The notes: generated by a model from the sequence alone, not told the origin. DNA of 64,000 nt from a virus (IMGVR_UViG_3300037515_000251:7926-71925); one strand, 5' to 3'. Numbered from the stretch's first letter, positions 16,401-56,366 are shown. Numbers and translations are program-made.

Positions 16401-16472
16401 CGGCGTCGGCTGGATTTGAACCAGCTACCTAAAGTTTTCAAAACTTTCGCTCTACCAATGAGCTACGTGTAT
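16401..16472 (-). ncRNA. tRNA-like RNA (D-arm, anticodon-like arm with loop UUUGAAA, T-arm GCUGGUUCAAAUCCAGC) lacking a pairing acceptor stem; candidate Y RNA (YrlA-like tRNA mimic) or partial tRNA
   Basis: minus-strand sequence …ACACG-UA-GCUC-AUUGGUA-GAGC-G-AAAGU-UUUGAAA-ACUUU-AGGUA-GCUGG-UUCAAAU-CCAGC-CGACGCC-G; 5' heptamer AUACACG cannot pair with 3' CGACGCC; 3' tail forms CGCC-GCAA-GGCG GNRA hairpin; T-arm identical to tRNA at 46386. Confidence 0.5.
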
Positions 16473-20745: not shown

Positions 20746-22629
20746 TCAGGCGGCGGGAGATACCGCTTTCACCGCCCCATCGGACAAAAAGAAAACCTTG
20801 GCCCCGTGGTTCAGCCAGCCATCGGGAACGTCAGCGACCACGCACTCGATCACCTGATGCCCGCTGGCCTGCAATTGGCACGAGATGTCGTAACGGAACG
20901 CATCCGTCATCGGCGCCAGATCGTCCACGGCCACGATGCCCACGCCGGTCACGGTCGCCACGGCAACCTTGAACGCGGCCTCGAACATCATTGCCTTCTG
21001 GCCGTCAGAGAGCAAGTCGGCTCCCCGGCCCGTGCAGACGAATCCGCCATCGAAGGTATACTCGACACCCTCAATCCCGAACGGCTCCAGGAACCCAGCC
21101 ATGATGCCCAGGAATTGCTCCAGCCGCCCGCCGACCATGGACTTGCGGAGTGCGAGCAGGTCGTCTACGATCTTGCGTTCCCGGTCGATTGCGGCGGCTT
21201 TGGCGGCCACGTTGTCGCGCCACTTGCGAACCGCTTCCGCCTTGGCTTGCCACTCCCGGTATCCCTCGACGGCCGTGGTGTGGGTGTCGCGCAACTGCTG
21301 GCACTTCTCGATGTCGGAGCTGATCTTGTCGCGCCGCGCGCGGGCTTCGTCCAGCGAGTTGCGGGCAGTGTCGGCTTCGGTGTGGATCGCGGCCAGCCGG
21401 TTGGCTTCGGTGTTCAGTTCACGCAGCTCACCGGACTTCAGTTCGAGGGTTTGCCGGGCCTTGATGGCAACCGCAAGGGATTCTTGGTGCTTGGCCGTCT
21501 TGAGGGCGAGGCTGTTTCGGTCAGTGGTGATCTCATCGCACTCGGATGTGAGTTGCGCCTGCTGTGATTCCAAGCCCAATATCTCGGTATCGGCCTGCTC
21601 AACGAGACGTTCGATGAGCGGACAAGCATCGGCTGGACACTTAATCTTCGGCCGCTCGGAGAGCTCGGCCATGCGCTGACAGATGGAGCGCAAGAGAGCC
21701 TGCTTGGCTTCGTATTTACCGCCAGATTCGCCGAGTAGGTTCATCCCGGTTTGGATTGCCCCGGAAATCTTTGCCTCCGTCTCCCGCGCAGCCTTCAGGT
21801 TCTCGGCGTTCTCGATGATCGCCTTCGTCAACGCCTCGGATTGTTCCGCCGTGGGCCGCGGCCCCGCCTGCTCCGCGCGCCGAATCCGTTCCTCGAACAT
21901 GCCGATGGCGGACGATACGGTTTGCAGTTCCTTGGTCAACGCGACGAACTTGGCATTTAGGCCGTCGAGCAGCTTCAGCCTCGCGTCAAGGTTCACGCCC
22001 TCCGGCTCTTCGCCAGGCTCTTCGGGCGGATGATCGTCGAGAGACTTGGCCTCGCGGTTGAGATCGCGCAGCGTGACCTCTTTGTGGTCCTTCAGCAGCG
22101 ATTCGATGTGCTCGATACCGGAGATCGTCGGAATTCCGGCGTCCAGCAGCGATTGCGGCACGGTGATCTTCGCCGGCCGCAGCACCCGCAGCAGCGCCGC
22201 CCGCTGGTCCTCGATGGGGCGCTCCAGCACGGGGATCGGGTCGAACATCGCCCAGATCGTTTCCGCTGGCAGTTGCAGAGCGTCGAGCAGGCGGGTCTCG
22301 TTGTCGCTCACCTTGTCGCCATCGGCCCATGAGAGCGTGAGCTTGTGCTTCTTGGCGCTCCGCGTGCGCTGGACGGTGCCGTGGGGGTCGAGCGTGAGGC
22401 TGATGGACGATTCGGCGGCGCCGGTGCGGATCAGGCGCTCGAATCCGCGGCCCCGCTTGTCGGTGAGATGGCAGGTTCCGGTGAGGGCGAGCGAGATGGC
22501 CCGCAGTACCGTGGACTTGCCGGAGCCGTTCGTCCCGACGATCAGATTGTGGCCGGGCGAGAACGCGAAGGTGACATCGGCGTGAGGGCCGATGTTCTGA
22601 ATGGTTAGGCGGGTGATTCTGAGTGGCAT
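20746..22629 (-). CDS. SbcC/Rad50-like SMC ATPase
   Basis: Walker A GTNGSGKST, long coiled-coil, CPADACP zinc-hook-like, signature LSDGQKAMM, Walker B IVAVDDL. Confidence 0.7.
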   Translation of the reverse strand: MPLRITRLTIQNIGPHADVTFAFSPGHNLIVGTNGSGKSTVLRAISLALTGTCHLTDKRGRGFERLIRTGAAESSISLTLDPHGTVQRTRSAKKHKLTLSWADGDKVSDNETRLLDALQLPAETIWAMFDPIPVLERPIEDQRAALLRVLRPAKITVPQSLLDAGIPTISGIEHIESLLKDHKEVTLRDLNREAKSLDDHPPEEPGEEPEGVNLDARLKLLDGLNAKFVALTKELQTVSSAIGMFEERIRRAEQAGPRPTAEQSEALTKAIIENAENLKAARETEAKISGAIQTGMNLLGESGGKYEAKQALLRSICQRMAELSERPKIKCPADACPLIERLVEQADTEILGLESQQAQLTSECDEITTDRNSLALKTAKHQESLAVAIKARQTLELKSGELRELNTEANRLAAIHTEADTARNSLDEARARRDKISSDIEKCQQLRDTHTTAVEGYREWQAKAEAVRKWRDNVAAKAAAIDRERKIVDDLLALRKSMVGGRLEQFLGIMAGFLEPFGIEGVEYTFDGGFVCTGRGADLLSDGQKAMMFEAAFKVAVATVTGVGIVAVDDLAPMTDAFRYDISCQLQASGHQVIECVVADVPDGWLNHGAKVFFLSDGAVKAVSPAA

Positions 22630-24000: not shown

Positions 24001-24015
24001 GTGTCAAACTGACAC
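24001..24015. repeat. genome-wide palindrome copy
   Basis: 19 nt upstream of minus-strand ATG at 23982. Confidence 0.9.
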
Positions 24016-25050
24016 GGGAAAACGTTTCATCGCGATGAGGTCCATTAGCAGTTCCTCGGCTACCTCGCGGCTCGGCTCCAGCGGCAGCATAGAACGGTCC
24101 CGAGCGGCCTTCGCCTCCGCGAACAATTCCTCGGCGCATTCTTTCACTGTCTCGATGGACCACTCCCCGCGCTTGATGGCGAGAAGTTCATCGGCATCCC
24201 GCTCGCGGTAGACGTTGAGCGTGCCCGAGTCGAGAAACTCCCGGCACATCCTCAGCAGCCGAATGCAATGAGCGGCGTGCTTGGTGTCGTATCCGCGCTC
24301 CAGGATCAGGCGCTTGCGCTTCTCACCCAGGTAGCCGAGATTCGAGTTCTTGGAATGAAACGCCTTCAACTTATCGCGGAGATGCTGATCTTCGTGGAAC
24401 GCGAAAATGGTGGTTTCCTCAACCGGGAACTTCTCGCCGCGATGCTGCGGATGAATCCCGCGTTGCTTCATCTCGGCAACGAGTTCAAGGTAGTCCTGCA
24501 ATGTCGCCCGGTCGAGGCATTCCATCCGTTCCAACTGCCCCGCCGCGTATCCGGCGAACGGCTTGTAGACATGGCGACCGATGAACAGCGCGCGATTCGC
24601 TATGAGCAAATTGCTGAGTGGGGAAGCGACAATCCGGTGTTCGGGCCTTGTCCACAGTGAGCTCATGATGTTGGGATTCCCGGCCAGCAGCAGCGAGAAA
24701 GCCTTGCGGAGTTCGTAGAACAACAGGTCGAACTTGCCCTGCTTGGTTTCCTTGGTGCCGCGAGAACCCCATTCGGTGAGGCCGATGTAGTGCGCTTTCG
24801 GGGCCACGGCAAACCCGATCACGTCCACGTCGTCCACCGAATGCGGATCGCTCTCGGGCAGATACATGCCGTGCGCCACTGAGCCTCGAAAGGCCGCGAA
24901 GATCACATCGTCCGGCAGGATTGCGCTGAACCCGTCCATGTGTGGGATAAACGCTCGGGTGCTGGCCCCGAGTCCAGGACTCGAACCTGGATTCTCCGGT
25001 CCACAGCCGGGTGTCTTAACCTGTTGAGACGAACTCGGGATTTCATTCAT
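24004..25050 (-). CDS. pol-beta superfamily nucleotidyltransferase (GS-x9-DxD) with helical C-terminal domain
   Basis: FRGSVAHGMYLPESDPHSVDDVDVIGF minimal NTase motif; palindromic motif + GGAGA SD 11 nt upstream of ATG at 25050. Confidence 0.55.
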   Translation of the reverse strand: MNEIPSSSQQVKTPGCGPENPGSSPGLGASTRAFIPHMDGFSAILPDDVIFAAFRGSVAHGMYLPESDPHSVDDVDVIGFAVAPKAHYIGLTEWGSRGTKETKQGKFDLLFYELRKAFSLLLAGNPNIMSSLWTRPEHRIVASPLSNLLIANRALFIGRHVYKPFAGYAAGQLERMECLDRATLQDYLELVAEMKQRGIHPQHRGEKFPVEETTIFAFHEDQHLRDKLKAFHSKNSNLGYLGEKRKRLILERGYDTKHAAHCIRLLRMCREFLDSGTLNVYRERDADELLAIKRGEWSIETVKECAEELFAEAKAARDRSMLPLEPSREVAEELLMDLIAMKRFPVSV

Positions 25051-25078: not shown

Positions 25079-26305
25079 CTAAAACGGCGGTTCCTCTTCA
25101 AACTCTTCCGGCGGCTCGTCCCCCGGCTCCCGGCCCAGGAACCGCTCCGTCTCGGCTACCGGGTCCATGGCGTCCACGAACTCATCGGCGCTCTCGGCTT
25201 TCCCGCCCTGCGTGGCGACCGCCTTGCTCGCCGCGCCGTAGTCGTCGGGGTTGACGCCTTGGACGACATCGACCCAAGGATTAGCGGCCCGGACATGATC
25301 GGGGATTGGGGCGGAGTTGGCCTGCGGCGCCGGCGCGGGAGCCTGCGGCTTCGTGGCGGGCTGAGCGGGTGGCTCTGGTTCTGGTTCCGGCTTTGGAGCG
25401 CCCGCCATCTTGCGGGCCGTGGACTTCGCCTTGGCCGCGTCCCGGTTTTTCTTGTAGACTTCCAGCCACGGGTCCAGAATCTCGTTCACGGCTTTCTTTC
25501 GGCCCGCTTCGTCGAGTGAATCCCACTTGGCCGACAACTCGGCGATGTGTTTATTGGCGACCGCCTGCTCCACGTTGACCTTGTGGGAGGCGTCCCGAAT
25601 AGACTGCATGATCTCGGCGGGCACATTCGATTCCGGGGCGGTGAGCACCGCCGTCGCCATGCGCTGCTGGAGGACTTCGGGCGGCGCATCGTTGTCCATC
25701 TGGTGCAACTCTTCGGCGATGTAGAGGCCGCGCAGGTTGCGCGGGAATGCGCGGCGCAATCCGCCTGCTTCAGCGCATTTGGCGATCTGTCCCTCCGGCA
25801 TTGTGTTCCAGAGACCGGCAGGTTCGCGCCGGTTCGTCTGCCTATTGAAATACGATTGGCAATAACTCGAAAATTTAACGGTATGAACCAGTGGTTCGGT
25901 GAACCCGTGACGCAGGATTTCAATTTTGGCGGCGGCGGGAGCCTCGTCTTGAAGCCACACGTCTTTCCAGACGCCATCTTTGCCGCACCAGAACGGCCCG
26001 CGCTGGCCCGCGTACTGGCCCGTGCTTTCGGCCTGTGTGCGTAGGCCGTCAATGCCAACTTGGATTGTCGGAACATCCCGCTGCTCCTTGGCGCTGAACC
26101 GTTTGACAAGATGGATTTCCCGCCGGAAGGGATCGAACCCAGTGGCCTTGCAGACCGCCAGGAAATAGTCCAGTTCTTCATCGGTCGCACCCTTGGCGAT
26201 GGTGTCCTTGATGACCTGAACCTGCTTCGGGGTAAAGCTGAGTTCGACTGGCTTGGATACGGCTTGCGGCTGGATCACCGCGACTGCTTTCGTTTCTTTG
26301 CTCAT
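25079..26305 (-). CDS. recT: RecT-family single-strand annealing recombinase
   Basis: FLAVCKATGFDPFRREIHLV…IQVGIDGLRTQAESTGQYAG core typical of RecT/Bet; acidic proline-rich C-terminal tail. Confidence 0.65.
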   Translation of the reverse strand: MSKETKAVAVIQPQAVSKPVELSFTPKQVQVIKDTIAKGATDEELDYFLAVCKATGFDPFRREIHLVKRFSAKEQRDVPTIQVGIDGLRTQAESTGQYAGQRGPFWCGKDGVWKDVWLQDEAPAAAKIEILRHGFTEPLVHTVKFSSYCQSYFNRQTNRREPAGLWNTMPEGQIAKCAEAGGLRRAFPRNLRGLYIAEELHQMDNDAPPEVLQQRMATAVLTAPESNVPAEIMQSIRDASHKVNVEQAVANKHIAELSAKWDSLDEAGRKKAVNEILDPWLEVYKKNRDAAKAKSTARKMAGAPKPEPEPEPPAQPATKPQAPAPAPQANSAPIPDHVRAANPWVDVVQGVNPDDYGAASKAVATQGGKAESADEFVDAMDPVAETERFLGREPGDEPPEEFEEEPPF

Positions 26306-26747: not shown

Positions 26748-27584
26748 CTAAACCTCGATCAATCTGGTAGCGACATCCTGGCTCGACACGATCACCGCGT
26801 CGAGCCGCTTGCGGCGCCGGGCGTTCGCCTCGGCCATGATGCGCCGCACGAGCTCGGGGTCGTTGTTCTCGCCCGACAGGTGCAGGGCCACGACCGTATG
26901 CGCCGTTTCCGGCAAACTCTGGATCGCCAGCGCCGCTTGGTCGTTGTTGACATGCGTTGACCACGTCCGCTGATTCACCGTCTCGGGCCTGTCTGGGTTC
27001 TCCAAGCACGCCGTCTGATCGTGGTTCATCTCGATTCCGTACACCTGCGCCCCGAGGCCCGCCTTCCACATTTCGGCCGTGATCTTGCCAGTCTCGTTCC
27101 AGATCGCTATCTTGCGGCCGGAGTAATTCTTCAGGCAGAACGTCATCGCGCCTTCGGAGTTGTGCTCGCAGGCCAGCCCGATGCCCGTGAACAGCTTGGC
27201 ATGGTCCCGGCTGAGTGCAAATGGCTTACCGAACTCGACGGCGCGCGCATCGCCGGGGAACGGTTTCTTCTCGCCGAGCTTGTCGCGCATTGTCTTGAGC
27301 GTGGCCGCGTGGGCGTAGACGATTGCGCTGGGACAGTGTTTCCAGAACGGCAGCAGCGATTGCCAGTGATCGCCGTGGGCGTGCGAGATGAGGATCGCCT
27401 TCACATCGGCCGGGGCCATCTTGAACTGTTTGAGGTCGGCGGCGATGTTTGCCGCGGCGAGGCCGCAGTCGATCAGCACGGCCCAGGGCAGCGGCCAAGG
27501 CTGGTTGTTGGCGGCGAGCGGAGCAGGCTCCCAGATCAGGATGGCGTTGCCCTTGGAGCCGGAGCCGAGTACGCAGAGGTTCAT
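26748..27584 (-). CDS. metallo-beta-lactamase-fold hydrolase
   Basis: VLGSGSKGNA…ILISHAHGDHWQSL (HxHxDH motif). Confidence 0.6.
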   Translation of the reverse strand: MNLCVLGSGSKGNAILIWEPAPLAANNQPWPLPWAVLIDCGLAAANIAADLKQFKMAPADVKAILISHAHGDHWQSLLPFWKHCPSAIVYAHAATLKTMRDKLGEKKPFPGDARAVEFGKPFALSRDHAKLFTGIGLACEHNSEGAMTFCLKNYSGRKIAIWNETGKITAEMWKAGLGAQVYGIEMNHDQTACLENPDRPETVNQRTWSTHVNNDQAALAIQSLPETAHTVVALHLSGENNDPELVRRIMAEANARRRKRLDAVIVSSQDVATRLIEV

Positions 27585-38113: not shown

Positions 38114-38784
38114 TGGCGGATGGTGCCAGACTGACACGGCGGGACGGGCGGATCGTGGAGATGCGGGCCGGGGGGATGACCTTGGCGGCGATTGGGCTTG
38201 AGTTTGGGGTAACGCGGCAGCGGGTGCGGCAGATAATCGAGAAGGCGTGCAGGGGCCGGCTGTGCGTGCGGTGCCGGCTGCCGGATGGGCGGCTGGACGG
38301 GGACGGGCTGTGCGGGAAGTGCGTGCGGCTGCTGGAGATCGTGGCGGACGATTCGCTGGCTTGCGAGGAAGCAGGCCAGAAGGCGGGTGTTTCTGGTGCG
38401 GTTGTTCAGCAGACTCGCCGGAAGTTCGGGATTCGGCATCAGTACCGGAAGCATTTCAGGGACGGTGTGCCGGAGGATGTATTCGATCCGCGGGCGAGCG
38501 CGTTGGCGCTGACACGCAAATACGGAGTTGGCAAGGGCGTTATTCAACACTTGCGAAAGAAGGCTGGGCTGGCTGGCCTACAGCGGAAGAAGCTGTTCCC
38601 ACAAAAAAGCTGGACGACTGACGAAGATCGTGTGCTTGTGGAGATGCGCCGGGCTGGCAAGACCTGGGCGGAGATTGGGGAGAGCCTGGGGCGGTCGCCT
38701 CAGGCGTGCCGGACAAGGCAGATCAACCAGCGGCGGAAGGGGATCGAAATGGGCGCGTGGCCGGAGGTCGCGGCGCCGTGCTGA
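38114..38784 (+). CDS. multi-HTH transcriptional regulator (sigma-r4-like HTH + SANT/Myb-like C-terminal repeat)
   Basis: LAAIGLEFGVTRQRVRQI HTH; C-terminal WTTDEDRVLVEMRRAGKTWAEIGESLGRSPQACRTRQ Myb-like; variant of the genome-wide palindrome (GTGCCAGACTGACAC) overlaps codons 4-8. Confidence 0.45.
38123..38137. repeat. variant palindrome copy (GTGCCAGACTGACAC)
   Basis: overlaps start of regulator gene 38114. Confidence 0.7.
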
Positions 38785-41475: not shown

Positions 41476-41850
41476 ATGCACAAAACCAAGGAAGTATCTA
41501 AACTGACCGGCCTCAGCGTCCGGCAACTCCAATACTGGGATGAGCACGGCTACGTCGTCCCCAAAATCGAGCGGCACCGCAGGCTCTACGACGACCGGCA
41601 GTTGCGCGGGCTGATGGTCATCGCCGCCCTGAAGCGCCGGGGAGTCAGTCGCAACGACGTGCTCGCCCAGGTCAACGAGGGGTTCTGGAGATTCATTGGG
41701 TACATTCAACTGGAAGCAGGTGGCTGGCTGCTGTGGGACCACTATGGCGGCGCTGAGCCGCTACGGTGGTGCCCCACCGAGAAGTTGCTGGCCGATGTCG
41801 CGGCAAAAGCCGAAGGCCCCGTGACCATCGTGGAGTTCAAGGCCGCATGA
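41476..41850 (+). CDS. MerR-family HTH regulator
   Basis: MHKTKEVSKLTGLSVRQLQYWDEHGYVVP N-terminal MerR-type HTH. Confidence 0.55.
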   Translation: MHKTKEVSKLTGLSVRQLQYWDEHGYVVPKIERHRRLYDDRQLRGLMVIAALKRRGVSRNDVLAQVNEGFWRFIGYIQLEAGGWLLWDHYGGAEPLRWCPTEKLLADVAAKAEGPVTIVEFKAA

Positions 41851-44379: not shown

Positions 44380-45102
44380 ATGAACGAATCGGTCAAACCG
44401 CTCGGCAAAAAGGCTTACGGCAGCATCCCGCACCTGCCGGGTAGCCGCCGTGGGCCTGGCGACCATCACTGCCATGAGGGCCAGGCGCTCATCTGCACCG
44501 AGAAGACGCGCGACAAGCACGATATCGTCAGCGTGACCGTCAAACTCGATGGCTCATGCGTGGCTGTGGCCAAAATCAATGGCCAGATCGTGGCGCTCGG
44601 CCGCGCTGGCTGGCCGGCGCAATCGTCACCCTACGAGCAGCACCAGTTGTTCGCCCACTGGGTCAGGCAGCATCACGATCGATTCAGCGGCCTGCTTGCC
44701 GAGGGGATGCGCGTCTGCGGCGAGTGGCTGGCTCAGGCCCATGGGACGCGGTATGAGTTGAATGGGCGTCAGCCGTTCGTTGCGTTTGACGTGTTCAGCC
44801 GGGATAACGAGCGGTTGCCAACGGAACATGCGCTCGACTTGATTCTGTCGTCCGGGTTGGCCGTTCCCAAGCGGCTTCAACTCTCGAATGATCCCTTGTC
44901 GATCGATGCCGCGATGGCTCTGATCGCAAACGAGTACCGCCGTGGCTATGGAGAACTCGACGAAGTAGAGGGCGCGGTCTGGCGCGTGGAGCGCCGCGGG
45001 AAGTTCGATTTTCTCGCCAAGTACGTTCGCCCAGACAAGATTGACGGGTTGTACCTGCCTGAGATTTCCGGCCAGGAACCGATTTGGAATTGGCGTCCAT
45101 GA
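44380..45102 (+). CDS. ATP-dependent RNA/DNA ligase-like nucleotidyltransferase (KxDG motif I)
   Basis: VTVKLDGSCVAV motif I; downstream EGAVWRVERRGKFDFLAKYVRPD motif V-like lysines; 240 aa fits minimal RNA-ligase size. Confidence 0.5.
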   Translation: MNESVKPLGKKAYGSIPHLPGSRRGPGDHHCHEGQALICTEKTRDKHDIVSVTVKLDGSCVAVAKINGQIVALGRAGWPAQSSPYEQHQLFAHWVRQHHDRFSGLLAEGMRVCGEWLAQAHGTRYELNGRQPFVAFDVFSRDNERLPTEHALDLILSSGLAVPKRLQLSNDPLSIDAAMALIANEYRRGYGELDEVEGAVWRVERRGKFDFLAKYVRPDKIDGLYLPEISGQEPIWNWRP

Positions 45103-46385: not shown

Positions 46386-46466
46386 CGGGGCGTAGCTCAG
46401 TCAGGCCGAAGGAGCGCTCGGTTTGGGACCGAGAGGCCGCTGGTTCAAATCCAGCCGCCCCGACCA
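46386..46466 (+). tRNA. tRNA, anticodon UGG (Pro) predicted, genomically encoded CCA, unusually long D-loop
   Basis: CGGGGCG-UA-GCUC-(13-nt loop)-GAGC-G-CUCGG-UUUGGGA-CCGAG-AGGCC-GCUGG-UUCAAAU-CCAGC-CGCCCCG-A-CCA; 7/7 acceptor pairs. Confidence 0.65.
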
Positions 46467-46999: not shown

Positions 47000-47401
47000 A
47001 TGACCGGCGACCAGATCACCGACCAGGCGGCATTGGCGGTATTCTTCACCTGGGCTTTCCAGCACATCAAGGCCGCGCCGTGGGCCTCGTTCGTCGGCGA
47101 TCACGCCCCAGGCATGAGCCGTGCGCTCTCGACGGCGTTCGCCGCGCTGGTCGGTGCGGGCTTCACCTACGAGTGGACCGGCAGCGCGGAGGCGGGCTGG
47201 ACAGGATCGATCTACATCCCGCCGCTGGCCGTGCTGACGCAGTTCGGGACAACTTTCGCGATCCAGTGGTTCGGCCAGAAGGGCGCCTACAAGATCATGT
47301 ACGGGATTCCGGGCAAGCCGGAGCTGCCGAAACCCCCCGAACAGCCCAAGCAGCCGATGATTATCACCACGACGGGAGCGGCCATTCCATCGCAGCCTTG
47401 A
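47000..47401 (+). CDS. hypothetical hydrophobic protein (possible membrane/holin-like)
   Basis: 133 aa with hydrophobic segments; overlapping longer ORF 46951-47457 in other frame. Confidence 0.3.
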   Translation: MTGDQITDQAALAVFFTWAFQHIKAAPWASFVGDHAPGMSRALSTAFAALVGAGFTYEWTGSAEAGWTGSIYIPPLAVLTQFGTTFAIQWFGQKGAYKIMYGIPGKPELPKPPEQPKQPMIITTTGAAIPSQP

Positions 47402-47554: not shown

Positions 47555-47917
47555 TTGGGAGCAAACAACACGGGCCGTCACACGGTCGATGTCACGATCC
47601 CGATCAACACCGCCCTCTCGAACGCCATCCAAATCACCTTCACCGACATCGTTGGCTTCTACATGCCCGCCGCTTGGACGGCCGCCGACATCGGATTCGA
47701 GGTTTCGCACGATGGCGTAACCTACTACATCGTCAGCGATTCGGCTGGCGCCCTCGTCACGATTCCCGTTGCCGCCGACGACTTTATCACCCTGCCGGAC
47801 GGCTTCGTTCAGGGCAATAAATGGTGCCGCGTGCGGTCTCAGAACGGCGGGACTGGAGCGGCAGTCAATCAACTCGCCGCACGCACAATCAAACTCGTGA
47901 AGCGCGATCTGCGGTAG
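47555..47917 (+). CDS. hypothetical protein
   Basis: 120-aa ORF preceding large fibre-like gene. Confidence 0.35.
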   Translation: MGANNTGRHTVDVTIPINTALSNAIQITFTDIVGFYMPAAWTAADIGFEVSHDGVTYYIVSDSAGALVTIPVAADDFITLPDGFVQGNKWCRVRSQNGGTGAAVNQLAARTIKLVKRDLR

Positions 47918-47926
47918 GAGAACGCC

Positions 47927-50668
47927 TTGAAACGACTGCTTGCCGCTGTTCTCCTGATCGCCGGTAGCCTGTTCGGGCAGAACCCGAACGACGCCCAATA
48001 CCCCGACTCGGTGCTCACCGAGCTTCAGGCCACGATTCAGTCGAACGAGGTCGTCACCGGCCAGATGGCGCTTTCGGCCGGCCACAACTCGACCGCGCTG
48101 ACGATTTCGCTGGTGGACGCCACGAACCTGATCGTGCCGTCGTCTATCCAGGTTGGCAACGAGATCATCCTGATTCAGTCGAAGGCGGCGAACGATCTGA
48201 CCGTGTTTTCGTCGTCGCTGACGGCGAACGACTGCACCAACGCAACGCCGATCGTGGTCACTACGACCACGGCGCACGCGCTGACCGGGCGGGAGCGGGT
48301 GACGATTACCGGCGTTACCGGCAACACGAACTGCAACGTGACGGCCAACGCCATCGCTGTGCTTTCGACGACCACCTTCTCGCTGACCGGCGTGAACGGC
48401 AATGGAGCCTACCTCGCGGGCGGCGCCGTGACGGCCACGGGGCGCGGCTTCGACGGCTCAACCCCGGCCTCGCACGTCACCGGGGCGCTGGTCGAGCCGA
48501 ATATCGTGGCTCATCATGTCAACCAGCACACCGCAGAGATTCGGGCGATGCAGTCCGAACTCGGTGTCAGTTTGGCCAACGTGGCCGTGCTGAATCGGTC
48601 GAATGTGTTTACCGGGGTGCAGCAGACCTTTACATCGTCGGCCACGCGCGCGGCGGCGAGAATCCTGTGCGCGGCGCTGCCATCGGCCCCGGAAACCGGC
48701 GACGTGGCCTGCGATTCGGGGGATTCGAACATCTTCAAGGTGTGGAACGGGTCTGCATGGGTTTCCCTTGGCGGAGCATCGACCCACGATTTGCTCAGCG
48801 CTACCCACACCGATACAGCCGTGGGCACGGTGGTTCGCGGCGATCTGATTACCGGACAGACGGCCACACCGGCATGGACCAGGCTGGCGATCGGGGCGGC
48901 GAACCGTTATCTGTCTTCCGATGGAACGGATGTAGCTTGGGGACAGGTGGCTTTCTCGCAGCTTTCCGGGGCTGCAACCCTCTCGCAATTGCCGTTCGGG
49001 ACGGCGAACCAGGTTCTCGGCACCAACGCCGGGGCGACTGCTCAGGAGCACAAGACGCTCGGCGTGGGCACTACCGGGACCGACTTTGCCATCGCCCATG
49101 CCGCGAACTCGATTGTCTTCAACCTGCCGACCGCCAGCGCCTCGAATCGCGGGGCACTTTCCACGGCGGACTGGAGCACGTTCAACGCCAAGGCCGCTGG
49201 AACCCACGCCAGCCAGCACACGGCGGGCGGGGCCGATATCGTCACGGTCGATGGCACCGACGCCGGGGCTGGAACGACGCGGACGGCATGGAACCCGATC
49301 AAGATCTCGCGCCACGATACCGACTGCACATCCCTGACGGATGGAGCGGCTGGCGAGCCGTGCTACGAAGAGGACGCCGACACGCTTTATGTCTGCGAGC
49401 CTACGGCTGGCGGCTGTGACACGGCGGCGGAATGGCGGCTGGTAAGCGGGGCTGGATCGGCCATCGACGTTCAAAACAGCGACGTATCGATCTCGAACCC
49501 GGCCTCGGTGCTCGATTTCTCAGCCGAGTTCACCGTGACCGAATCGCCCGCCGGAGAGGCGAATATCGCGCTTGCTGGCGGCGGAATCGGAAACACCCGC
49601 AACTATACGACACTGTTCACTTCGACGACCAGCGTCACGGTCACCGGAACGGCCCATGGATTCAATCATGGGGCCATCATCGTCCAGTGCTACGACCAGG
49701 CGGTTCCGAAAGCGAAAGTAGAACCGAACACGGTTACCATCGCTCCGGCGACCTACAACGTCACGATCACGTTCTCGACGGCCCAGTCTGGCGAGTGCAT
49801 CCTGGCGGCCTCGGGGGGTGGCACGGCGGATTCAGCCTATGCCGGACTCTACATCTCGACCCCCGCCGCTACGGGACCGTTTGCCGCTGGAACTTACGTC
49901 AAACTCGCCGGAACGTACTCGAATCTGAGCGCCGGGCCGGATGACTTCGATGAACCCGTGGATGGGCGCCTGCGCTACATCGGGGCACGCACCCTGGTCT
50001 TCAACGCCTACGTGTCGGTCTCGTTGTCGATCGATGCGGCGGCCACAGTCAGCGTCCGCCTGGCCCGCAACGGAACCACGATCGCCGATTCCCAGCAAGA
50101 CGTGAACATGGCCACGGCCAGTGTGGCCTATCCGATTTCGCTGCATACCCAGGTGGGCTTGGCGACGAACGACTACCTCGAAGTATTTGTCGATCACGAC
50201 TCGGGTTCCGCCAAGACCGTAACCGCCGAACTGCTGACGATGACGGCGACCCCGGCCACCGGAGTCGCGAACAACGAAGGCAACCCCTGCTGGCAGAAAT
50301 ACACGATCGACGAGACGGCGCTGACCGACGCGGACACGAGCGAGGACGAGACGCTGTTCACCTGCTCGCAGTTCTGCAAGATTCGCGGCGCGGTCGTCAA
50401 GCACTCGGAGGCATTCACCGGCGGAACGCTTTCGGCTATGACGGTCAGCGTGGGAACCACTGGCACGCCAACGAGGTATACGAGCGCATTCGATATTTTC
50501 CAGGCGGCTGCCGACACGACCTTTCAGGACACCGACCTGATGAAATCGGAGACGATGGCGGCGGCGGGGCACAGCGTGATCGCTCAGTTCGTTTCGACCG
50601 GCGATAACGTGGTGAATGCGACGGCCGGGAGTGTCGATATCTGGGTTTGCTCGGAGACAATCCAGTGA
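47927..50668 (+). CDS. tail-fibre-like / receptor-binding protein (913 aa) with signal-peptide-like N-terminus
   Basis: MKRLLAAVLLIAGSLFGQ hydrophobic N-terminus; T/S/A/G-rich beta-rich composition typical of fibres; N-terminus paralogous to 51093 gene. Confidence 0.4.
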   Translation: MKRLLAAVLLIAGSLFGQNPNDAQYPDSVLTELQATIQSNEVVTGQMALSAGHNSTALTISLVDATNLIVPSSIQVGNEIILIQSKAANDLTVFSSSLTANDCTNATPIVVTTTTAHALTGRERVTITGVTGNTNCNVTANAIAVLSTTTFSLTGVNGNGAYLAGGAVTATGRGFDGSTPASHVTGALVEPNIVAHHVNQHTAEIRAMQSELGVSLANVAVLNRSNVFTGVQQTFTSSATRAAARILCAALPSAPETGDVACDSGDSNIFKVWNGSAWVSLGGASTHDLLSATHTDTAVGTVVRGDLITGQTATPAWTRLAIGAANRYLSSDGTDVAWGQVAFSQLSGAATLSQLPFGTANQVLGTNAGATAQEHKTLGVGTTGTDFAIAHAANSIVFNLPTASASNRGALSTADWSTFNAKAAGTHASQHTAGGADIVTVDGTDAGAGTTRTAWNPIKISRHDTDCTSLTDGAAGEPCYEEDADTLYVCEPTAGGCDTAAEWRLVSGAGSAIDVQNSDVSISNPASVLDFSAEFTVTESPAGEANIALAGGGIGNTRNYTTLFTSTTSVTVTGTAHGFNHGAIIVQCYDQAVPKAKVEPNTVTIAPATYNVTITFSTAQSGECILAASGGGTADSAYAGLYISTPAATGPFAAGTYVKLAGTYSNLSAGPDDFDEPVDGRLRYIGARTLVFNAYVSVSLSIDAAATVSVRLARNGTTIADSQQDVNMATASVAYPISLHTQVGLATNDYLEVFVDHDSGSAKTVTAELLTMTATPATGVANNEGNPCWQKYTIDETALTDADTSEDETLFTCSQFCKIRGAVVKHSEAFTGGTLSAMTVSVGTTGTPTRYTSAFDIFQAAADTTFQDTDLMKSETMAAAGHSVIAQFVSTGDNVVNATAGSVDIWVCSETIQ

Positions 50669-51092
50669 GAGACACAAGAACCACCTTTCAAGAAAAACGA
50701 CGGCCGCGACTTTTCTGGAAAGTCGTGCTTGTGATTATCGGCACGGCGGCTGCCCTGGCGCTGCTTGACGCGATTCTGCCGAAGGCTCCCGGCCAGCGCT
50801 CGGAAATCAGCAACCTGGATAACGCCTTGCGCGGGGGCATGGGAGCCGAGTTGGCGAGCGCAACGACGATCATTCCGACGAATCAAGTCCACGCGGTTAG
50901 CGGGATCGCGGCGATCAGCACAATCACCGCTCCATCCGGCATAAGGCCCGGAGATGTTCTGATCCTTATCCCCAAGGGCTTAATCACCTTTACTGCGACT
51001 GGCAACATCGCAATTGGAGTTACGGCCGTCGTCAATAGGGCTTTGATTCTGGTGTGGGATGGTACGGACTGGATTCCGAGTTATTTGCTATG

Positions 51093-51908
51093 AGATACGC
51101 ACGGTTCATCGCTCTTTTGTTGTTCGGTGTCAGTTTGGCACCAGGTCAGGCGGTCATCAACGGAGCGCGGGTGATGCCGGAGATCAGCTCTCCGTCCAGC
51201 CCGGCGGCGAACAGCTTGGCGGTTTACGTCTGCGACGACGCGGGAACCACGAAACTCTGCTCGAAGGATTCGGCGGGGACCGTGTCGATTGGCATCGGCA
51301 CTGGCGGAAATGGCGTGGCGCAGGGAGGCACCGGCCAGACCAGTTATACCAAGGGCGACCTGCTGTGCGCCACGGGGGCGACGACGCTCGCTAAACTTGC
51401 CGTTGGCACGGACGACCAGGTGCTTACCGCCGACAGCGCCGAAGCCTGCGGGGTGAAATGGGCGGCGGCGGCGGGCGGTGGCGCACAAACAGCCCAGCGG
51501 GCGACCATGTGGGCCGATGAGTTCACTCCGGGGGCTAGCTGTGCATCCATTACTACAACAATAGACGCGGCGCAGAATTATGCCTTTTATTCAAACTGTG
51601 CCGACAATGCCGATGGAGACGATTTCACAACATCATTTTCATTGGCTGCTGGCACCTACACAGTTTATGTGCTCGGCGTGACTTTCAATAATCGGGCGAT
51701 ACTCGACTGGGAAGTGGACGACGTATCGGTAGAGACGGGACAGGATTGGTATTCTGCTGGAGTTGTAGCTGGTGCCGTCAAAACATTCCCGATCACCGTA
51801 ACTGACGGATATCACAAACTCGAAGGAATCGTGAACGGCAAGAACGCATCGTCCTCGGCATTCATTGTCACACTTACAAAGATTTGGATCAAACCAGCAG
51901 CGGATTAG
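51093..51908 (+). CDS. tail-fibre-like protein with signal-peptide-like N-terminus
   Basis: MRYARFIALLLFGVSLAPGQA; G/T/A-rich; C-terminal ~90 aa has a frameless paralogue immediately downstream. Confidence 0.4.
   Translation, partial: RYARFIALLLFGVSLAPGQAVINGARVMPEISSPSSPAANSLAVYVCDDAGTTKLCSKDSAGTVSIGIGTGGNGVAQGGTGQTSYTKGDLLCATGATTLAKLAVGTDDQVLTADSAEACGVKWAAAAGGGAQTAQRATMWADEFTPGASCASITTTIDAAQNYAFYSNCADNADGDDFTTSFSLAAGTYTVYVLGVTFNNRAILDWEVDDVSVETGQDWYSAGVVAGAVKTFPITVTDGYHKLEGIVNGKNASSSAFIVTLTKIWIKPAAD
51127..51141. repeat. genome-wide palindrome copy inside CDS
   Basis: within signal-peptide-like coding region of 51093 gene. Confidence 0.9.
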
Positions 51909-51935
51909 GATTACATTATTATGCTCAAACCTGAA

Positions 51936-52212
51936 GACTTAGCACCAGTACAGCGCCGGGAACCTACGAGTTTTCGGCTCTCGGGCCACAGTTCACCAAT
52001 CGCGGAATCATCGATTGGTACATCGACGACGTACTGATCGGAACACAGGATTGGAATGGGGGCTTGGCATACAACGTCGTCAAGACCATCGGAGGCGTTG
52101 CACTCGAAGGTGGACGGCACACGCTCAAGGGAGTCATTAACGGCAAAAACGAAGCGTCGTCTGGGTTCGCGATGACGCTCACGAAATACTGGCTTCTTCG
52201 GACTGGTGATTG
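51936..52212 (+). pseudogene. start-less paralogous copy of the C-terminal domain of gene 51093-51908 (alternative fibre-tip cassette or gene remnant)
   Basis: translation GTYEFSALGPQFTNRGIIDWYIDDVLIGTQDWNGG…GVINGKNEASSGFAMTLTKYWLLRTGD aligns with …GTYTVYVLGVTFNNRAILDWEVDDVSVETGQDWYSAG…GIVNGKNASSSAFIVTLTKIWIKPAAD; in-frame stop at 51933-51935 and no ATG. Confidence 0.5.
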
Positions 52213-52275
52213 ATCGGTGAATGCCCTACCAGCACACGACCTGGCCCACCCTGAAGATAGCGCTGCCCGATAGCA

Positions 52276-53103
52276 ATGCACTATGACACCGACCGCCTGC
52301 GTGAGCAGATCGCCGCCCGCCGCGAGGCGAAGCAGAGGTTGTTCGTGCGGCGCGTCGTTTTCGTGGGCTTGATGACCTTGTTTGCATTGGCGTTGCTCTA
52401 CTTCTGGCCGCCGCGAGCGCTTGGGGCCGACCTCACATTCTCGTTCCACCGCCAGCCCGACGAGGAAAAGCACACGCCCTGGTATCTCTGCGTCGAGAAC
52501 CTGTCTCCCGAACCGGCCCGCGTGCGGCTGGCGGACATCTACCGGGCGGCTGGCGGAAACGTGGCGCTCTACGACCCCGGCAAGCTGTCGAACGTTATGC
52601 GCCACAAGCCGCGGGCGAAGTGGCTCAGGGCGCTTGGGATCGCCGGGGCCGCGGCCTCGATTGTGATTCCGCTGGCCGGGGTGAAGGAAATCGGCGTCAA
52701 CCTGATTGGGCCGGCCCTGAGCGGCGGAACCGCCATCGCCGTCCCGGCCATTGAGGCAAACCAGCGCTTTGAAGTCGGGATTGAGGGCTACTGGACGACC
52801 GATCACCTGCTCGACGCCCGCGAGGCCCGCTGCTCTCGCGTAATGTCGGCACGGTCGAAGGATACTCTGGCGACGTTCACATTCGAGAGCCGGGATGTGC
52901 GGGCGGAAATGTTCCACGAAGCACAACACGAGCAGGATGAATTGATTCCATTCAGCAGCCTGAAGGTGGAGCACGGCGGGGCCTACACATTGCCCGGCGA
53001 TTGTGTTTCGTGCCAAACTGACACTGCCATGTTACAGCCGCCGTGCAGGCCGTCCGCCGTGGTTGAAGAGGATGGAGTCGAGCCGTGCGCTTGGGTAGAC
53101 TAG
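52276..53103 (+). CDS. hypothetical membrane-anchored protein
   Basis: 275 aa, TM helix near N-terminus, strong GC3 bias (antisense 350-aa ORF rejected); palindromic motif lies inside its 3' end. Confidence 0.4.
   Translation: MHYDTDRLREQIAARREAKQRLFVRRVVFVGLMTLFALALLYFWPPRALGADLTFSFHRQPDEEKHTPWYLCVENLSPEPARVRLADIYRAAGGNVALYDPGKLSNVMRHKPRAKWLRALGIAGAAASIVIPLAGVKEIGVNLIGPALSGGTAIAVPAIEANQRFEVGIEGYWTTDHLLDAREARCSRVMSARSKDTLATFTFESRDVRAEMFHEAQHEQDELIPFSSLKVEHGGAYTLPGDCVSCQTDTAMLQPPCRPSAVVEEDGVEPCAWVD
53010..53024. repeat. genome-wide palindrome copy inside CDS 3' end
   Basis: within 52276-53103. Confidence 0.9.
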
Positions 53104-53614: not shown

Positions 53615-54091
53615 ATGAACAAGCCGATCGACACCATTGAAGCCCGTGGTAGTTTAGGGGGGCAACCTTTTCACGGCAATGAATCTGGGCTTTGCTGGCT
53701 GATTGAAGACGCCACGGGAGAGTGCCGGATCGCCCACAAGCCGTGCCGGTTTCACCGTGGCGGTGGATATCACGGTGGGGTACTGCCTGAATTCTGCCCG
53801 CTCCGCGAGGGGCCGGTAACAATTTCTCTTCATTCCTGGCACTACGATGAGACTGTCCAGCGGGACAACCCAACCGTGGAGCAACGCATCGCGGCGATCC
53901 CAATCGAAGCGCAAATCGACGAGGCTACGGAGGCTGAGTTGCGTAAGGCCGGAAATCCGTTTTGGCGGCTGGACGACGAGTTGGAGAGGGAAGGCAAGTA
54001 CGCGCAATTCGCCGCCGAAACCAGACACAAGGTTGCCTGCGGCCTCCATGACCGCAACCTGGAGCAGTTGATCTCAAAGAGTGCCGTCTAA
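53615..54091 (+). CDS. hypothetical protein
   Basis: 158-aa ORF abutting terminase gene. Confidence 0.4.
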   Translation: MNKPIDTIEARGSLGGQPFHGNESGLCWLIEDATGECRIAHKPCRFHRGGGYHGGVLPEFCPLREGPVTISLHSWHYDETVQRDNPTVEQRIAAIPIEAQIDEATEAELRKAGNPFWRLDDELEREGKYAQFAAETRHKVACGLHDRNLEQLISKSAV

Positions 54092-56366
54092 GCCTAAATA
54101 CCGCGCCGAGAAGCTGTCCGCCGATGGGGTCCGTAAGCGGCAGGCGTGGACGCGCCCGCCAGAGGCGATCGTTCTCGACTCGCTCACCTACGACTCGCTC
54201 AAGCACGAACTCCACAACAAGCCAGTCTGGGAAGCGAACGCCTGCTACCTCTGCACAGGCCATCAGGTTCTTTCCCGCTACACGGCGCTGCTCCATTTCC
54301 AGTGGATGCACATCGACATCCTCAACGGCGGCCCGGCCACGCCCGAGGACGAAGCCGGTATCCGCAAGCTGGTAGGGGCGATCCGGCAGGAGTATGGGGT
54401 CGATGCGCCCTGGCCGAAGGGCGATCCGGTGATCTGTCCGGCCTGCGGAGGGACCGGGAAGGGGCCGCAGCATTTGGCGCTGACGACGTTGGCGGATGAA
54501 ATCTTCTTCGGCGGCGAAAAGGGCGGCGGCAAGACGTCCGCCATGACCTTTTGGATGGTCCACGGCAACCCGGATCAGCCGCAGTATGACGACCAGGGAC
54601 GGGCGATCTGGCACAACCAGGCGTATTATCATCACCCGGCGTACCGCGGCTTGGTGGTCCGCAAAAACCAGGAGGATTTGAGCGGCTGGCTGAAATACGC
54701 CATCCCGTTCTACCAGAAACTCGGGGCGGAATACCTGAAAGCCGAGGGCACATTTGAATGGGCTTCGGGCGCCGTGATCTGGACCGGACACCTGGCGGAC
54801 GCCAAATCGTATCAGAAGTACATGGGCAAGCCCGAGCTTCACCGGCTGGCTATCGAGGAAATCACGCAGTTGCCAGAGGAAGAGTTGTACGAGCAGATGC
54901 GCTCGAACGTGCGGACGACGCACCCGGAGTTGCACCCGCAGATTTTCAACTCGGCGAACCCGATCGGACCAGGTAAGCAGTGGGTCGCCGACCGTTTCGT
55001 GCGGATGAAAGACGAAAACGGCAATCGCATTCCGCGCAAGACGCTGGCGACATTCTTCGTGCCTAACCCGTTCACCGGCAAGAAAATGCCCCGCACGCGC
55101 ATCTTCATCCCGGCCGGCCTGCGCGACAACCCGCACATCGACAAGGGCTATCTGGGCGTGCTGGCCGGCCTGTCGCCGCGGCTGCAAAAAGCGTACCTCC
55201 AGGGCGATTGGGAGTCGATGGAAGGGCAATACTTCCACACGTTCCGCGATCCAGATGCACAGAACTTGGCTGCATACAACGAACCCGAGAATGCCTGCCA
55301 TGTGATTAAGCGCCGCAAGGAACCGCCGTTCTACCCGAAACTGGACCACTGGTGGGCGCGGCAAATGGGCGGCGACTGGGGTAGCGAGCATGAAGCATCG
55401 TACCACTGGGGCTGCCGCGATCCGTACACGTCCCGGCTGCACGTCTACCGGGAGTTTGTGTGCTCGAAGACGACAGCGGTATCGCAGGGCGTCCGCATTG
55501 CCGAGTTGAGCCGCGACGACCTGGAGCGGCTACCGGATCACTCGATGACGCTGTGGTACTCGCGAGATGCCTTCATTCAGCGTTCGAACGACGAAGGAAT
55601 GACCAGTCTGGTCGAATTGCTTGCTCGTGGAATCGCCATGGTGCTCGGCCCGGACGCGATCTCGGTTCCGGGATTACAGCAGCTTGCGGCCAGCACCCAA
55701 GATTATTCCTGGGACGACCGGCCCCGGTTCCGCCAGGAATTCAATGAGTTTCAGCAGTCGTTGGCAATCCAGAAGAGTTCGGGCATCACAATCCGCATGT
55801 GCAATTCCAACCGCGTACTCGGCTGGAACTACATTCGGGAAGGTTTCGAGTGGCTGGACCCCGTGGCGGCCGATGGCGAGTACAGCCAGGAGCTTGAGCT
55901 GAAGATCAGCCGCGAGTTCGGCATGGTCGAGGCCGAGCGCTACCGCAACCGCTTCAACCGCCAGAAGGTAGTTCGCCCGTGGCTTCAGATTTGGGATACC
56001 TGCCCGCGGCTGCGGGCGGCCATTCCGCGTGCGCAAGCTGACGACCGCAACCCCGAGGATGTGAGCAAGAAGCACTTCACGGGGGCCGACGTCATCGATA
56101 GTTTTCGCTACCTTGTAGTTGGCTTCCGCGACGACCCTTCGCCGATTCCGCCGGAAGTCCAGAAGATGCACGCGATCGATGCGTTCAAGGCGACTAATCC
56201 GAACCACACCTTCGATGACCTGGTGCGGTTCAACGAAGCATTGGAGCGGGCCGAAAAAGCGACTGGCGGGCCGTTGCATTATGCTACATTAGGACGCAGG
56301 GCGACCATGGCGGGCCGGATTCTGAAGCAGGCATGGGGCCGCCGGCCGCAAGGGAGTTTGCAGTGA
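54081..56366 (+). CDS. terL: terminase large subunit (ATPase + nuclease) with N-terminal Zn-ribbon extension
   Basis: Walker A-like GGEKGGGKTSAM, Walker B LAIEEITQL, RNaseH-like C-terminal half (…DVIDSFRY…); CPACGGTG upstream of ATPase. Confidence 0.65.
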   Translation: MPSKPKYRAEKLSADGVRKRQAWTRPPEAIVLDSLTYDSLKHELHNKPVWEANACYLCTGHQVLSRYTALLHFQWMHIDILNGGPATPEDEAGIRKLVGAIRQEYGVDAPWPKGDPVICPACGGTGKGPQHLALTTLADEIFFGGEKGGGKTSAMTFWMVHGNPDQPQYDDQGRAIWHNQAYYHHPAYRGLVVRKNQEDLSGWLKYAIPFYQKLGAEYLKAEGTFEWASGAVIWTGHLADAKSYQKYMGKPELHRLAIEEITQLPEEELYEQMRSNVRTTHPELHPQIFNSANPIGPGKQWVADRFVRMKDENGNRIPRKTLATFFVPNPFTGKKMPRTRIFIPAGLRDNPHIDKGYLGVLAGLSPRLQKAYLQGDWESMEGQYFHTFRDPDAQNLAAYNEPENACHVIKRRKEPPFYPKLDHWWARQMGGDWGSEHEASYHWGCRDPYTSRLHVYREFVCSKTTAVSQGVRIAELSRDDLERLPDHSMTLWYSRDAFIQRSNDEGMTSLVELLARGIAMVLGPDAISVPGLQQLAASTQDYSWDDRPRFRQEFNEFQQSLAIQKSSGITIRMCNSNRVLGWNYIREGFEWLDPVAADGEYSQELELKISREFGMVEAERYRNRFNRQKVVRPWLQIWDTCPRLRAAIPRAQADDRNPEDVSKKHFTGADVIDSFRYLVVGFRDDPSPIPPEVQKMHAIDAFKATNPNHTFDDLVRFNEALERAEKATGGPLHYATLGRRATMAGRILKQAWGRRPQGSLQ

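Follow-up and report, generated by a model that had tools for sequence, protein, structure and literature searches.

Fibre-like phage proteins with predicted Sec signal peptides beside a truncated and probably inactivated carbohydrate-binding module

Introduction

Particles of tailed phages assemble in the cytoplasm, and a signal peptide on a phage protein normally counts as evidence against a structural role. What, then, should be made of a locus in which two genes for tail-fibre-like proteins (gene 1 and gene 2) each begin with a hydrophobic leader, and in which the second is followed by a start-less stretch of coding sequence (the piece) that is homologous to its own C-terminus? The locus lies in a 64,000-nucleotide stretch of viral DNA (IMGVR_UViG_3300037515_000251:7926-71925; this whole stretch is referred to as the window). 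We conclude, with a probability of roughly 0.6, that gene 1, gene 2 and a 142-amino-acid (aa) open reading frame (ORF) between them encode fibre-like, modular glycan-binding proteins with Sec-type signals, and that the piece is an inactivated tandem module.

The window is phage DNA and matches part of a 71.8 kb JGI contig found in three samples; its source is a tailed phage of roughly 72 kb. The region is an adsorption-protein cassette just upstream of the packaging genes, lying 5' of the terminase on the same strand (Table 1). Its relatives are the contigs L002 and L003, in which the terminase is 83% identical, L004, L005 and L009, in which gene 1 is 80-82% identical, and L008, a strain 98.8% identical in nucleotides whose contig breaks just after gene 1; L001 and L010 are the window's own sequence rather than separate relatives. 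Contig searches with the large terminase (TerL) and gene 1 found no relative among 185,579 species genomes, viral contigs yielded no further ones with gene 2, TerL or the DNA pattern, and metagenome contigs searched with a 168-aa protein and the DNA pattern gave just two chance matches (L011 and L012). Gene 2 had no match in the cultured-phage collection.

Results

Leaders of the cassette proteins resemble Sec signals

When all window ORFs were scanned for n-, h- and c-regions, gene 1 and gene 2 were the only real genes found to have a signal-like leader followed by glutamine, a pattern also present in the 142-aa ORF. By this heuristic scan, the leaders consist of a positively charged n-region, an h-core of about 10-13 residues, small residues at -3 and -1, and Q at +1. 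With a slash marking the predicted cleavage site, gene 1, which starts at a TTG with AGGAG 6 nt upstream, begins MKRLLAAVLLIAGSLFG/QNPN (layout MKR-LLAAVLLIAGSLF-G/Q), gene 2 begins MRYARFIALLLFGVSLAPG/QAVING (layout MRYAR-FIALLLFGVSLA-PG/Q), and the 142-aa ORF has a long leader (...LFWKVVLVIIGTAAALALLDAILPKAPG/QRSEISNLDNAL) ending ...APG/Q. The hydrophobic N-termini that a preliminary description had noticed on both genes are n-h-c leaders ending G/Q, and the coordinates it gave hold to within 3 nt, the ATG of gene 2 being at 51090 rather than at 51093. A public gene call (P0001) begins gene 2 at M29 instead, with GGAG 8 nt upstream of that codon. This start was rejected: the relatives have no start codon there, and R5 of the leader is preserved in them by the synonymous codons CGG, AGG and AGA, which argues that the leader is translated.

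The same leader pattern recurs in the relatives, where every gene 1 and gene 2 homologue has a small residue followed by Q, and where the G/A-then-Q ending is kept on gene 1, gene 2 and the 142-aa ORF. The leaders themselves change more quickly than the N-termini of the mature proteins, or are replaced outright on an unchanged mature start. The gene 1 product, for example, is 82% identical to its L004 homologue, whose leader is different (MRRLFTWLALALLTSLPSLG/QNPN), and in the 142-aa ORF of L008 the leader is unrelated (MFRHDLKIALSSAALTAACIVASFG/QRAEISNLDNAL), although the mature protein starts alike, with QR(A/S)EISNLDNAL in both. The leader of the gene 2-like protein of L009 reads MFRRNPVVVLLLATIPLWA/QSEK, and L004 and L005 carry an extra gene that starts MKSTILLLLTATLSFA/Q. 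The two leaders had been described as paralogous. This was not borne out: BLASTP gave no N-terminal match between gene 1 and gene 2, and the gene 1 leader is a different sequence in relatives, so that the two are alike only as signal peptides generally are.

A cysteine at +1, the lipobox Cys, marks lipoprotein signals, unlike the substrates of signal peptidase I (SPase I). No such residue is present in the leaders, which have Q at +1 everywhere and n-regions of the type KR, R..R or RR; nor was the twin-arginine pattern S/T-R-R-x-F-L-K found in those n-regions, aside from a weak RRLF in L004 gene 1. In addition, a core of 10-13 residues is too short to span a membrane, which argues that the leaders are not anchors.

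To these features can be added the cysteine content of the proteins. Among 240 homologues, 45 bear a leader, and the predicted +1 residue is Q in 33 of these, against a background of 2.9% for Q after A, G or S. Leader-bearing homologues contain 1.3 Cys per 100 aa as compared with 0.43 in leaderless ones (p=2e-11), and, of the 40 with two or more cysteines, 33 have an even number (p=2e-5), as against 52 of 83 leaderless homologues. Within the window, Cys numbers are even in the mature cassette proteins, and the capsid region encodes a 513-aa protein that lacks cysteine and a 448-aa protein with just one. All 14 cysteines of gene 1 are kept in L004, and L009 has 16, the additional two having been gained together. 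The six cysteines of gene 2 fall into three local pairs, and four of them occupy positions that lack Cys in leaderless homologues. Given their short core, small -3 and -1 residues, Q at +1, replaceability and association with paired cysteines, the leaders are probably real Sec/SPase I signals, one of two options that the preliminary description had allowed, and neither membrane anchors, its other option, nor hydrophobic by chance. SPase I would cut each leader before the glutamine, and the mature proteins would fold outside the cytoplasm with disulfide bonds.

Glutamine at +1 is the 'Q-rule' of Bacteroidetes SPase I substrates (PMC5837995), and the rule has been noted for five unknown proteins of Porphyromonas gingivalis phages, which their authors read as host-surface modifiers (PMC10367356). 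The leaders described here share with both sets (PMC5837995, PMC10367356) the charged start, the 10-13 residue core, the small -3 and -1 residues and Q at +1. The P. gingivalis phage proteins are likewise phage-encoded, but have no assigned function, whereas here, as predicted from genes, the leaders sit on large fibre-like proteins whose tips have been swapped and which are encoded in the late region of a tailed phage. A further difference is that the Q-rule refers to Bacteroidetes, whereas the homologues of the present proteins bear mixed taxonomic labels (two Acidobacteria metagenome-assembled genomes and one Saprospiraceae) that do not identify a host phylum. In the literature we found no description of signal peptides on the tail fibres of tailed phages.

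The 142-aa ORF, which is also a JGI gene call (in L010), looks like a third exported protein of the cassette, as predicted from its leader. In L002, L004 and L005 no such ORF stands between gene 1 and gene 2, and this, together with the unrelated leader in L008, suggests strain-level heterogeneity at its position. In L008 the ORF is at 12742-12852 of the contig, which ends at the same spot.

Gene 2 has the layout of a modular fibre

Residues 1-76 of gene 2 are 73-78% identical among relatives, while the remainder is unrelated or only 35-40% identical, with a different C-terminal part in each. Behind the leader, residues 20-76 hold a conserved Cys pair (C48 and C57) and are presumed to form an attachment domain. 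The fibre motif region that follows is common to many fibre-like proteins; residues 62-134 match PHROG 32934 and 30390, both of unassigned function, and none of the matches is to a characterised fibre. Similarly, a central motif of gene 1 is common to proteins with Peptidase_S74, Mtd_N and Pectate_lyase_3 domains. A search of the PDB with the gene 1 sequence gave no match, and its AlphaFold 2 (AF2) model was poor (mean predicted local distance difference test score 49) and was not used for a fold search. Taken with a tip family found in siphophage tail modules (see below), these shared motifs agree with the earlier view of both proteins as tail-fibre-like.

Base composition changes along gene 2. 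Neighbouring genes have a GC content at third codon positions (GC3) of 0.78-0.83, and the first half of gene 2 one of 0.75-0.76; the value falls to 0.51 in the tip, 0.33 in the spacer that follows it and 0.63 in the piece; this drop relative to the neighbours marks 51500-52230 as a foreign block. We propose that gene 2 is a chimera of a leader and a 57-aa N-terminal domain, then the fibre motif, then a carbohydrate-binding beta-sandwich that would ride on a low-GC block gained horizontally.

The tip module has a beta-sandwich (jelly-roll) fold of about 130 residues. Searched against the PDB, the profile of A4 matched 6F2P (1.5e-7) and 7EHG (7e-7), which places the gene 2 tip with the xanthan-binding and CBM35/6 modules; carbohydrate binding is predicted. 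These comparators, namely the xanthan-binding modules of polysaccharide lyase family 8 (PL8) xanthan lyases (MiXBM, 7EHG; the Paenibacillus C-terminal module, 6F2P) and the carbohydrate-binding modules CBM35, CBM6 and CBM36, show an identity of 16-17%, and are joined to an enzyme, where the module here is joined to a phage fibre. The tip family has 1,234 representatives at E<=1e-3, with no tblastn match below E 1e-5 in the cultured-phage collection. Its members take three forms. Some stand alone as leaderless proteins of about 150 aa, encoded where siphophage tail modules end; others make up the C-terminal part of a longer protein; and a third form is the tandem arrangement, either in one protein (P0002, P0003, P0241 and others) or in adjacent genes (L013-L016). 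Elsewhere, the family has genes for Dit, tape-measure and Sipho_Gp37 proteins as neighbours. Within the xanthan-binding/CBM35 fold, the tip domain represents a phage branch that is large and uncharacterised; it points to exopolysaccharide receptors.

The piece downstream of gene 2 is the end of a second tip module

The frame of the piece runs from 51935 to 52213, directly behind an in-frame TGA (51932-51934), with homology from 51947 to 52210. In BLASTP it aligns with residues 181-272 of gene 2 (the last 89 residues aligned) at 46% identity (E=1e-22), and the family hidden Markov model (HMM) identifies it as positions 48-136 of 136, with 99.5 bits. In six-frame translations, the family HMM finds exactly two copies, the full module in gene 2 and the piece, both confined to the window. 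There is no in-frame ATG, and the sole in-frame start is a TTG at 52064 that opens a 49-aa ORF, which gene callers annotate as a protein.

The piece had been described as a start-less duplicate of the end of gene 2. Its homology to gene 2, the upstream stop and the lack of an ATG are all as reported, whereas its origin as a duplicate of the gene 2 C-terminus is not supported. On aligning the two segments by codon, 54% of nucleotides are identical (0.61, 0.65 and 0.37 at the first, second and third codon positions), with no exact match longer than 9 nt, and both the gene 2 tip and the piece are closer to other family members (59% and 65%) than to each other. Because third codon positions are saturated and each copy is nearer to other members, we rejected a local tandem duplication of the gene 2 tip. 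The identities by codon position further indicate that the copies diverged long ago, mostly under protein-level constraint, and therefore that the piece was working coding sequence until fairly recently.

That constraint has since relaxed, as shown by comparison with the rest of the family: against a profile of the last 89 positions, the piece scores 93 bits, the lowest of 72 members (member minimum 102; gene 2, 131), and it lacks two of the 12 invariant residues. The earlier suggestion of decay is in this respect upheld, though for a diverged family member and not for a duplicate. Since it starts one third of the way into the beta-sandwich, the piece could not be expected to fold alone. It is absent, by family HMM, from the relatives with an assembled gene 2 region (L002-L005), so that it is not conserved among relatives even though its similarity to gene 2 is far beyond chance. 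An extension of gene 2 into the piece by read-through or frameshifting was rejected, because the frames differ and a TGA lies between them.

Clues to how the piece arose come from the spacer. Here, AGGA is followed after 10 nt by an ATG at 51921, which lies in the frame of gene 2 and in a different frame from that of the piece, and which opens a 38-codon ORF (MLKPEDLAPVQRREPTSF...). The spacer peptide MLKPEDLAPVQR... weakly resembles the (N/E)(D/E)LPxR motif found ahead of the module in stand-alone members and, counted from this ATG, the conserved A-G-T-Y motif arrives about 45 codons early. We propose that the piece preserves the 3' two thirds of another member of the tip module family, one that is old and diverged and that probably arrived in a tandem pair, as its second unit. 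About 136 nt, roughly the first 45 codons of the domain, would then have been lost in an out-of-frame deletion that stranded the ribosome-binding site and ATG in another frame. Most likely, then, the piece is what is left of a second sugar-binding gene that was recently inactivated, either a pseudogene or a recombination scar, and does not function as an alternative tip. In L013, and also in L014-L016, two adjacent small genes (5493-5999 and 6001-6453 in L013), each a full module, stand right after the tail genes; by analogy, this pair from an unrelated siphophage can be taken as a natural example of the proposed ancestral tandem arrangement. The piece itself is ordinary, but it usefully illustrates how a recombination scar can enter an annotation as a protein.

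As in other modular phage receptor-binding proteins, the N-terminal part of gene 2 is retained while the C-terminal part differs from one relative to the next, and, as at other sites of exchange, the tip sits on a compositionally foreign block with a truncated homologue adjoining it. Two features set the locus apart: an export signal precedes the N-terminus, and the remnant is a second member of the imported family, not a residue of the tip type seen in the relatives.

Alternative readings of the piece and of the leaders

The piece had also been proposed to be an exchangeable receptor-binding cassette, in which case a functional spare tip would swap the gene 2 module by homologous (RecT-mediated) or site-specific recombination and thereby switch receptor specificity. 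It belongs to the same domain family, lies in the same orientation immediately downstream and keeps its frame open; the phage encodes RecT (25079-26305), and a perfect 15-nt inverted repeat, conserved as a pair in L002, flanks the stretch from the body of gene 2 through the 275-aa gene. We nonetheless consider this reading very improbable. An identity of 54% with a 9-nt longest run is too little for homologous exchange even with RecT, and because the piece lies in direct orientation, recombination with gene 2 could only delete, irreversibly. As noted above, the piece begins at fold position 48, has lost two invariant residues and is missing from the relatives. The inverted repeat is one pair among 22 copies of a mostly intergenic motif and lies off the homology breakpoints, and a hypothetical inversion between 51127 and 53010 would make the leader read into the antisense of the conserved 275-aa gene; an invertible segment of this kind was rejected. 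No crossover sites flank the piece, and no invertase or resolvase, integrase or reverse transcriptase was found in the scanned window ORFs (those below about 115 aa in 1-37 kb having been scanned in part) or among JGI/Logan Pfam marks at 37.9-60.7 kb. The invertible fibre segments Mu G and P1 C and the mtd diversity-generating retroelement (DGR) of BPP-1 likewise have a second copy of the 3' coding part of a fibre gene next to that gene. However, those copies are nearly identical in sequence, in place of the roughly 54% seen here; the copy here is direct, not inverted as in Mu G and P1 C, with no invertase found; and, unlike in BPP-1, mismatches are not adenine-specific but fall at all four bases, with no reverse transcriptase found, so that a DGR template/variable pair was also rejected.

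With regard to the leaders, two other readings have to be weighed. The hydrophobic N-termini might be uncleaved helices of fibres assembled in the cytoplasm, serving in tail docking or membrane contact, or in part an artefact of start choice. The public start of gene 2 at M29 with its GGAG, an AF2 helix at residues 2-16 of gene 1, and the DNA-motif constraint on part of the gene 2 leader would fit such a reading, which we regard as improbable in view of the missing start codon at M29 in relatives, the synonymous changes within a conserved leader, the short core that is always followed by a small residue and Q, and a Cys density and parity that favour folding outside the cytoplasm. Moreover, a leader exchanged between strains 98.8% identical while the mature end stays fixed is unexpected for a docking helix. 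A stronger competitor, though one to which we give clearly less than even odds, accepts both the export signals and the pseudogene: the fibre-like proteins would be secreted or periplasmic glycan binders that are not part of the virion and act on the surface of the infected cell, possibly masking the receptor polysaccharide (superinfection exclusion, or sparing progeny from debris) or remodelling the envelope. Their export signals and paired cysteines put the proteins outside the cytoplasm, where particles are not assembled; the cassette is flanked by membrane proteins (47000-47401 and 52276-53103), and the P. gingivalis phage proteins that follow the Q-rule were interpreted as host-surface modifiers (PMC10367356). 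On the other hand, a conserved N-terminal domain with swapped C-terminal modules is a receptor-binding architecture, and the motifs and tip family are common to tail-module proteins. Leader-bearing homologues also have structural genes as neighbours in two further phage contigs, which are similar in G+C; in one, the homologue lies between adaptor-like genes and others of the structural set. Within the window, no other fibre or receptor-binding gene was recognised, although many of its proteins have no assigned function.

On balance, we lean towards incorporation of the exported proteins into the virion, as receptor-binding proteins that meet the particle at lysis. Extended to a whole clade, this would mean that tailed phages of about 70 kb from environmental metagenomes, with hosts that are probably Acidobacteriota or Bacteroidota, export all their receptor-binding fibres by Sec, that SPase I trims these to an N-terminal pyroglutamate, and that they acquire disulfides in the periplasm and join particles only at lysis, a proposal that we advance tentatively, with odds about equal to those of the host-surface reading. 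We know of no description of such a spatially split assembly route for tailed phages. Were fibres exported and oxidatively folded in this way, virion maturation would have an extracytoplasmic step, or these phages would deploy adsorption modules on the host surface, for example in receptor masking; either outcome would alter the annotation of such genes.

Several points weigh against parts of the reading preferred here. Cleavage and export of the cassette proteins are predicted from heuristics and comparative patterns, gene 2 of L002 has an odd number of mature cysteines, and disulfides could also arise once the proteins have left the cell. The strong DNA-level conservation of that leader in gene 2 is due in part to an embedded 15-nt motif and not to protein constraint. 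As tailed-phage particles assemble in the cytoplasm, exported fibres would need a hypothetical late joining step. As for the piece, the proposed deletion draws on a single genome and on a peptide resemblance that is short and weak, scans of three collections gave no close relative that spans 51.5-52.3 kb, and the piece keeps an open frame of 92 codons, which in formal terms leaves room for some residual role.

A 15-nt motif recurs across the window

The motif embedded in the gene 2 leader is near-palindromic (GTGTCAGTTTG(G/A)CAC) and has 22 copies on both strands of the window, against 0.06 expected. Most are intergenic, often right before GGAG and a start codon or just past a stop, and the motif also occurs in L002-L005 and L008. 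At 63469, both half-sites carry a compensatory change (GTGCCA...TGGCAC). The motif gave no Rfam match, and its G variant is found equally in sense and antisense relative to transcription. This lack of orientation bias led us to reject an RNA hairpin, and the motif looks like a DNA site for a dimeric regulator.

The copy in the gene 2 leader is identical at that position in L002-L005. Across the window and three relatives, 5/5 third-codon positions inside it are invariant (5/6 with the adjacent codon, versus 12/28 elsewhere). Together with the copy at 53010-53024, near the 3' end of the 275-aa gene, this copy (51127-51141) forms the perfect inverted pair mentioned above. The pair is kept in L002 (1574-1588 and 3683-3697), where the terminase is only 83% identical and the gene 2 tip is different, and it lies off recombination and homology breakpoints.

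Candidate readers of the motif are two proteins encoded in the window: one with sigma-70 region 4 and a Myb-like DNA-binding domain (38176-38784, +), which has a motif copy 39 nt upstream, and one of the MerR family (41476-41850, +).

Table 1 Features of the cassette and its surroundings, in window coordinates
Feature	Position	Strand	Remarks
133-aa membrane protein	47000-47401	+	First of the listed genes upstream of the terminase
120-aa protein	47555-47917	+	Between the 133-aa membrane protein and gene 1
Gene 1, 913-aa fibre-like protein	47927-50668	+	ORF with TTG start and Shine-Dalgarno sequence
Gene 1 predicted signal peptide, codons 1-17	47927-47977	+	Predicted cleavage SLFG/QNPN
142-aa ORF, leader-bearing	50665-51093	+	GTG start overlaps gene 1 stop (GTGA)
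Gene 2, 272 aa	51090-51908	+	ATG overlaps preceding stop as ATGA
Gene 2 predicted signal peptide, 19 aa, MRYARFIALLLFGVSLAPG/Q	51090-51146	+	ATGA overlap; kept in L002-L005, where the codons of R5 and L10 vary synonymously
15-nt motif copy GTGTCAGTTTGGCAC within gene 2 leader codons (G V S L A)	51127-51141	+	
Gene 2 conserved N-terminal domain, aa 20-76	51147-51317	+	73-78% identical in L002, L004 and L005
Gene 2 fibre motif region, aa 77-135, GGTGQTSYTKGDLL...GTDDQVLTADSAEACGVKW	51318-51494	+	PHROG matches; GC3 0.76
Gene 2 C-terminal beta-sandwich, predicted carbohydrate-binding, aa 136-272, plus stop	51495-51908	+	Low-GC, apparently imported
AT-rich spacer, 38 nt	51909-51946	+	GC 0.37; AGGA at 51907-51910; ATG at 51921
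Truncated second carbohydrate-binding module (predicted) with TGA stop, most likely a pseudogene remnant	51947-52213	+	HMM positions 48-136 of 136
275-aa protein, N-terminal transmembrane segment VVFVGLMTLFALALLYFW	52276-53103	+	Next conserved gene; 77% identical to L002 d278
Large terminase	54081-56366	+	PHROG 979 at 2e-19; about 26% identity to many phage terminases
15-nt motif, start positions	6592, 10200, 12637, 14236, 16557, 19742, 24001, 25062, 28554, 30803, 31753, 34733, 36368, 38123, 42118, 44224, 46775, 48564, 51127, 53010, 59948, 63469	both	

Other features of the phage genome

A recombination and repair gene set (25079-26305, 26748-27584, 20746-22629 and 24004-25050, all on the minus strand, and 44380-45102 on the plus strand) comprises RecT, a metallo-beta-lactamase-fold protein, an SbcC/SMC-like ATPase, an RlaP-family nucleotidyltransferase and an RNA ligase; RecT might explain why the fibre cassette is mosaic. 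The phage also carries tRNA-Pro(TGG) and tRNA-His(GTG), with tRNA-type sites at 46386-46466 (+), 24963-25039 (-) and 16407-16467 (-); the third is a tRNA-like match from Rfam only, covering part of the model (positions 6-65). A 1,247-aa protein with an LPD38 domain and PHROG 9854 (6451-10194, +) and a 550-aa protein with a short tape-measure-like stretch (3333-4985, +) probably belong to one structural module that wraps round from the terminase region on a circular map of about 71.8 kb. Amid plus-strand genes of structural size there is a minus-strand candidate ORF with a PAS domain and a GC3 of 0.83 (2419-3216), which overlaps the end of a plus-strand candidate ORF at 692-2431.

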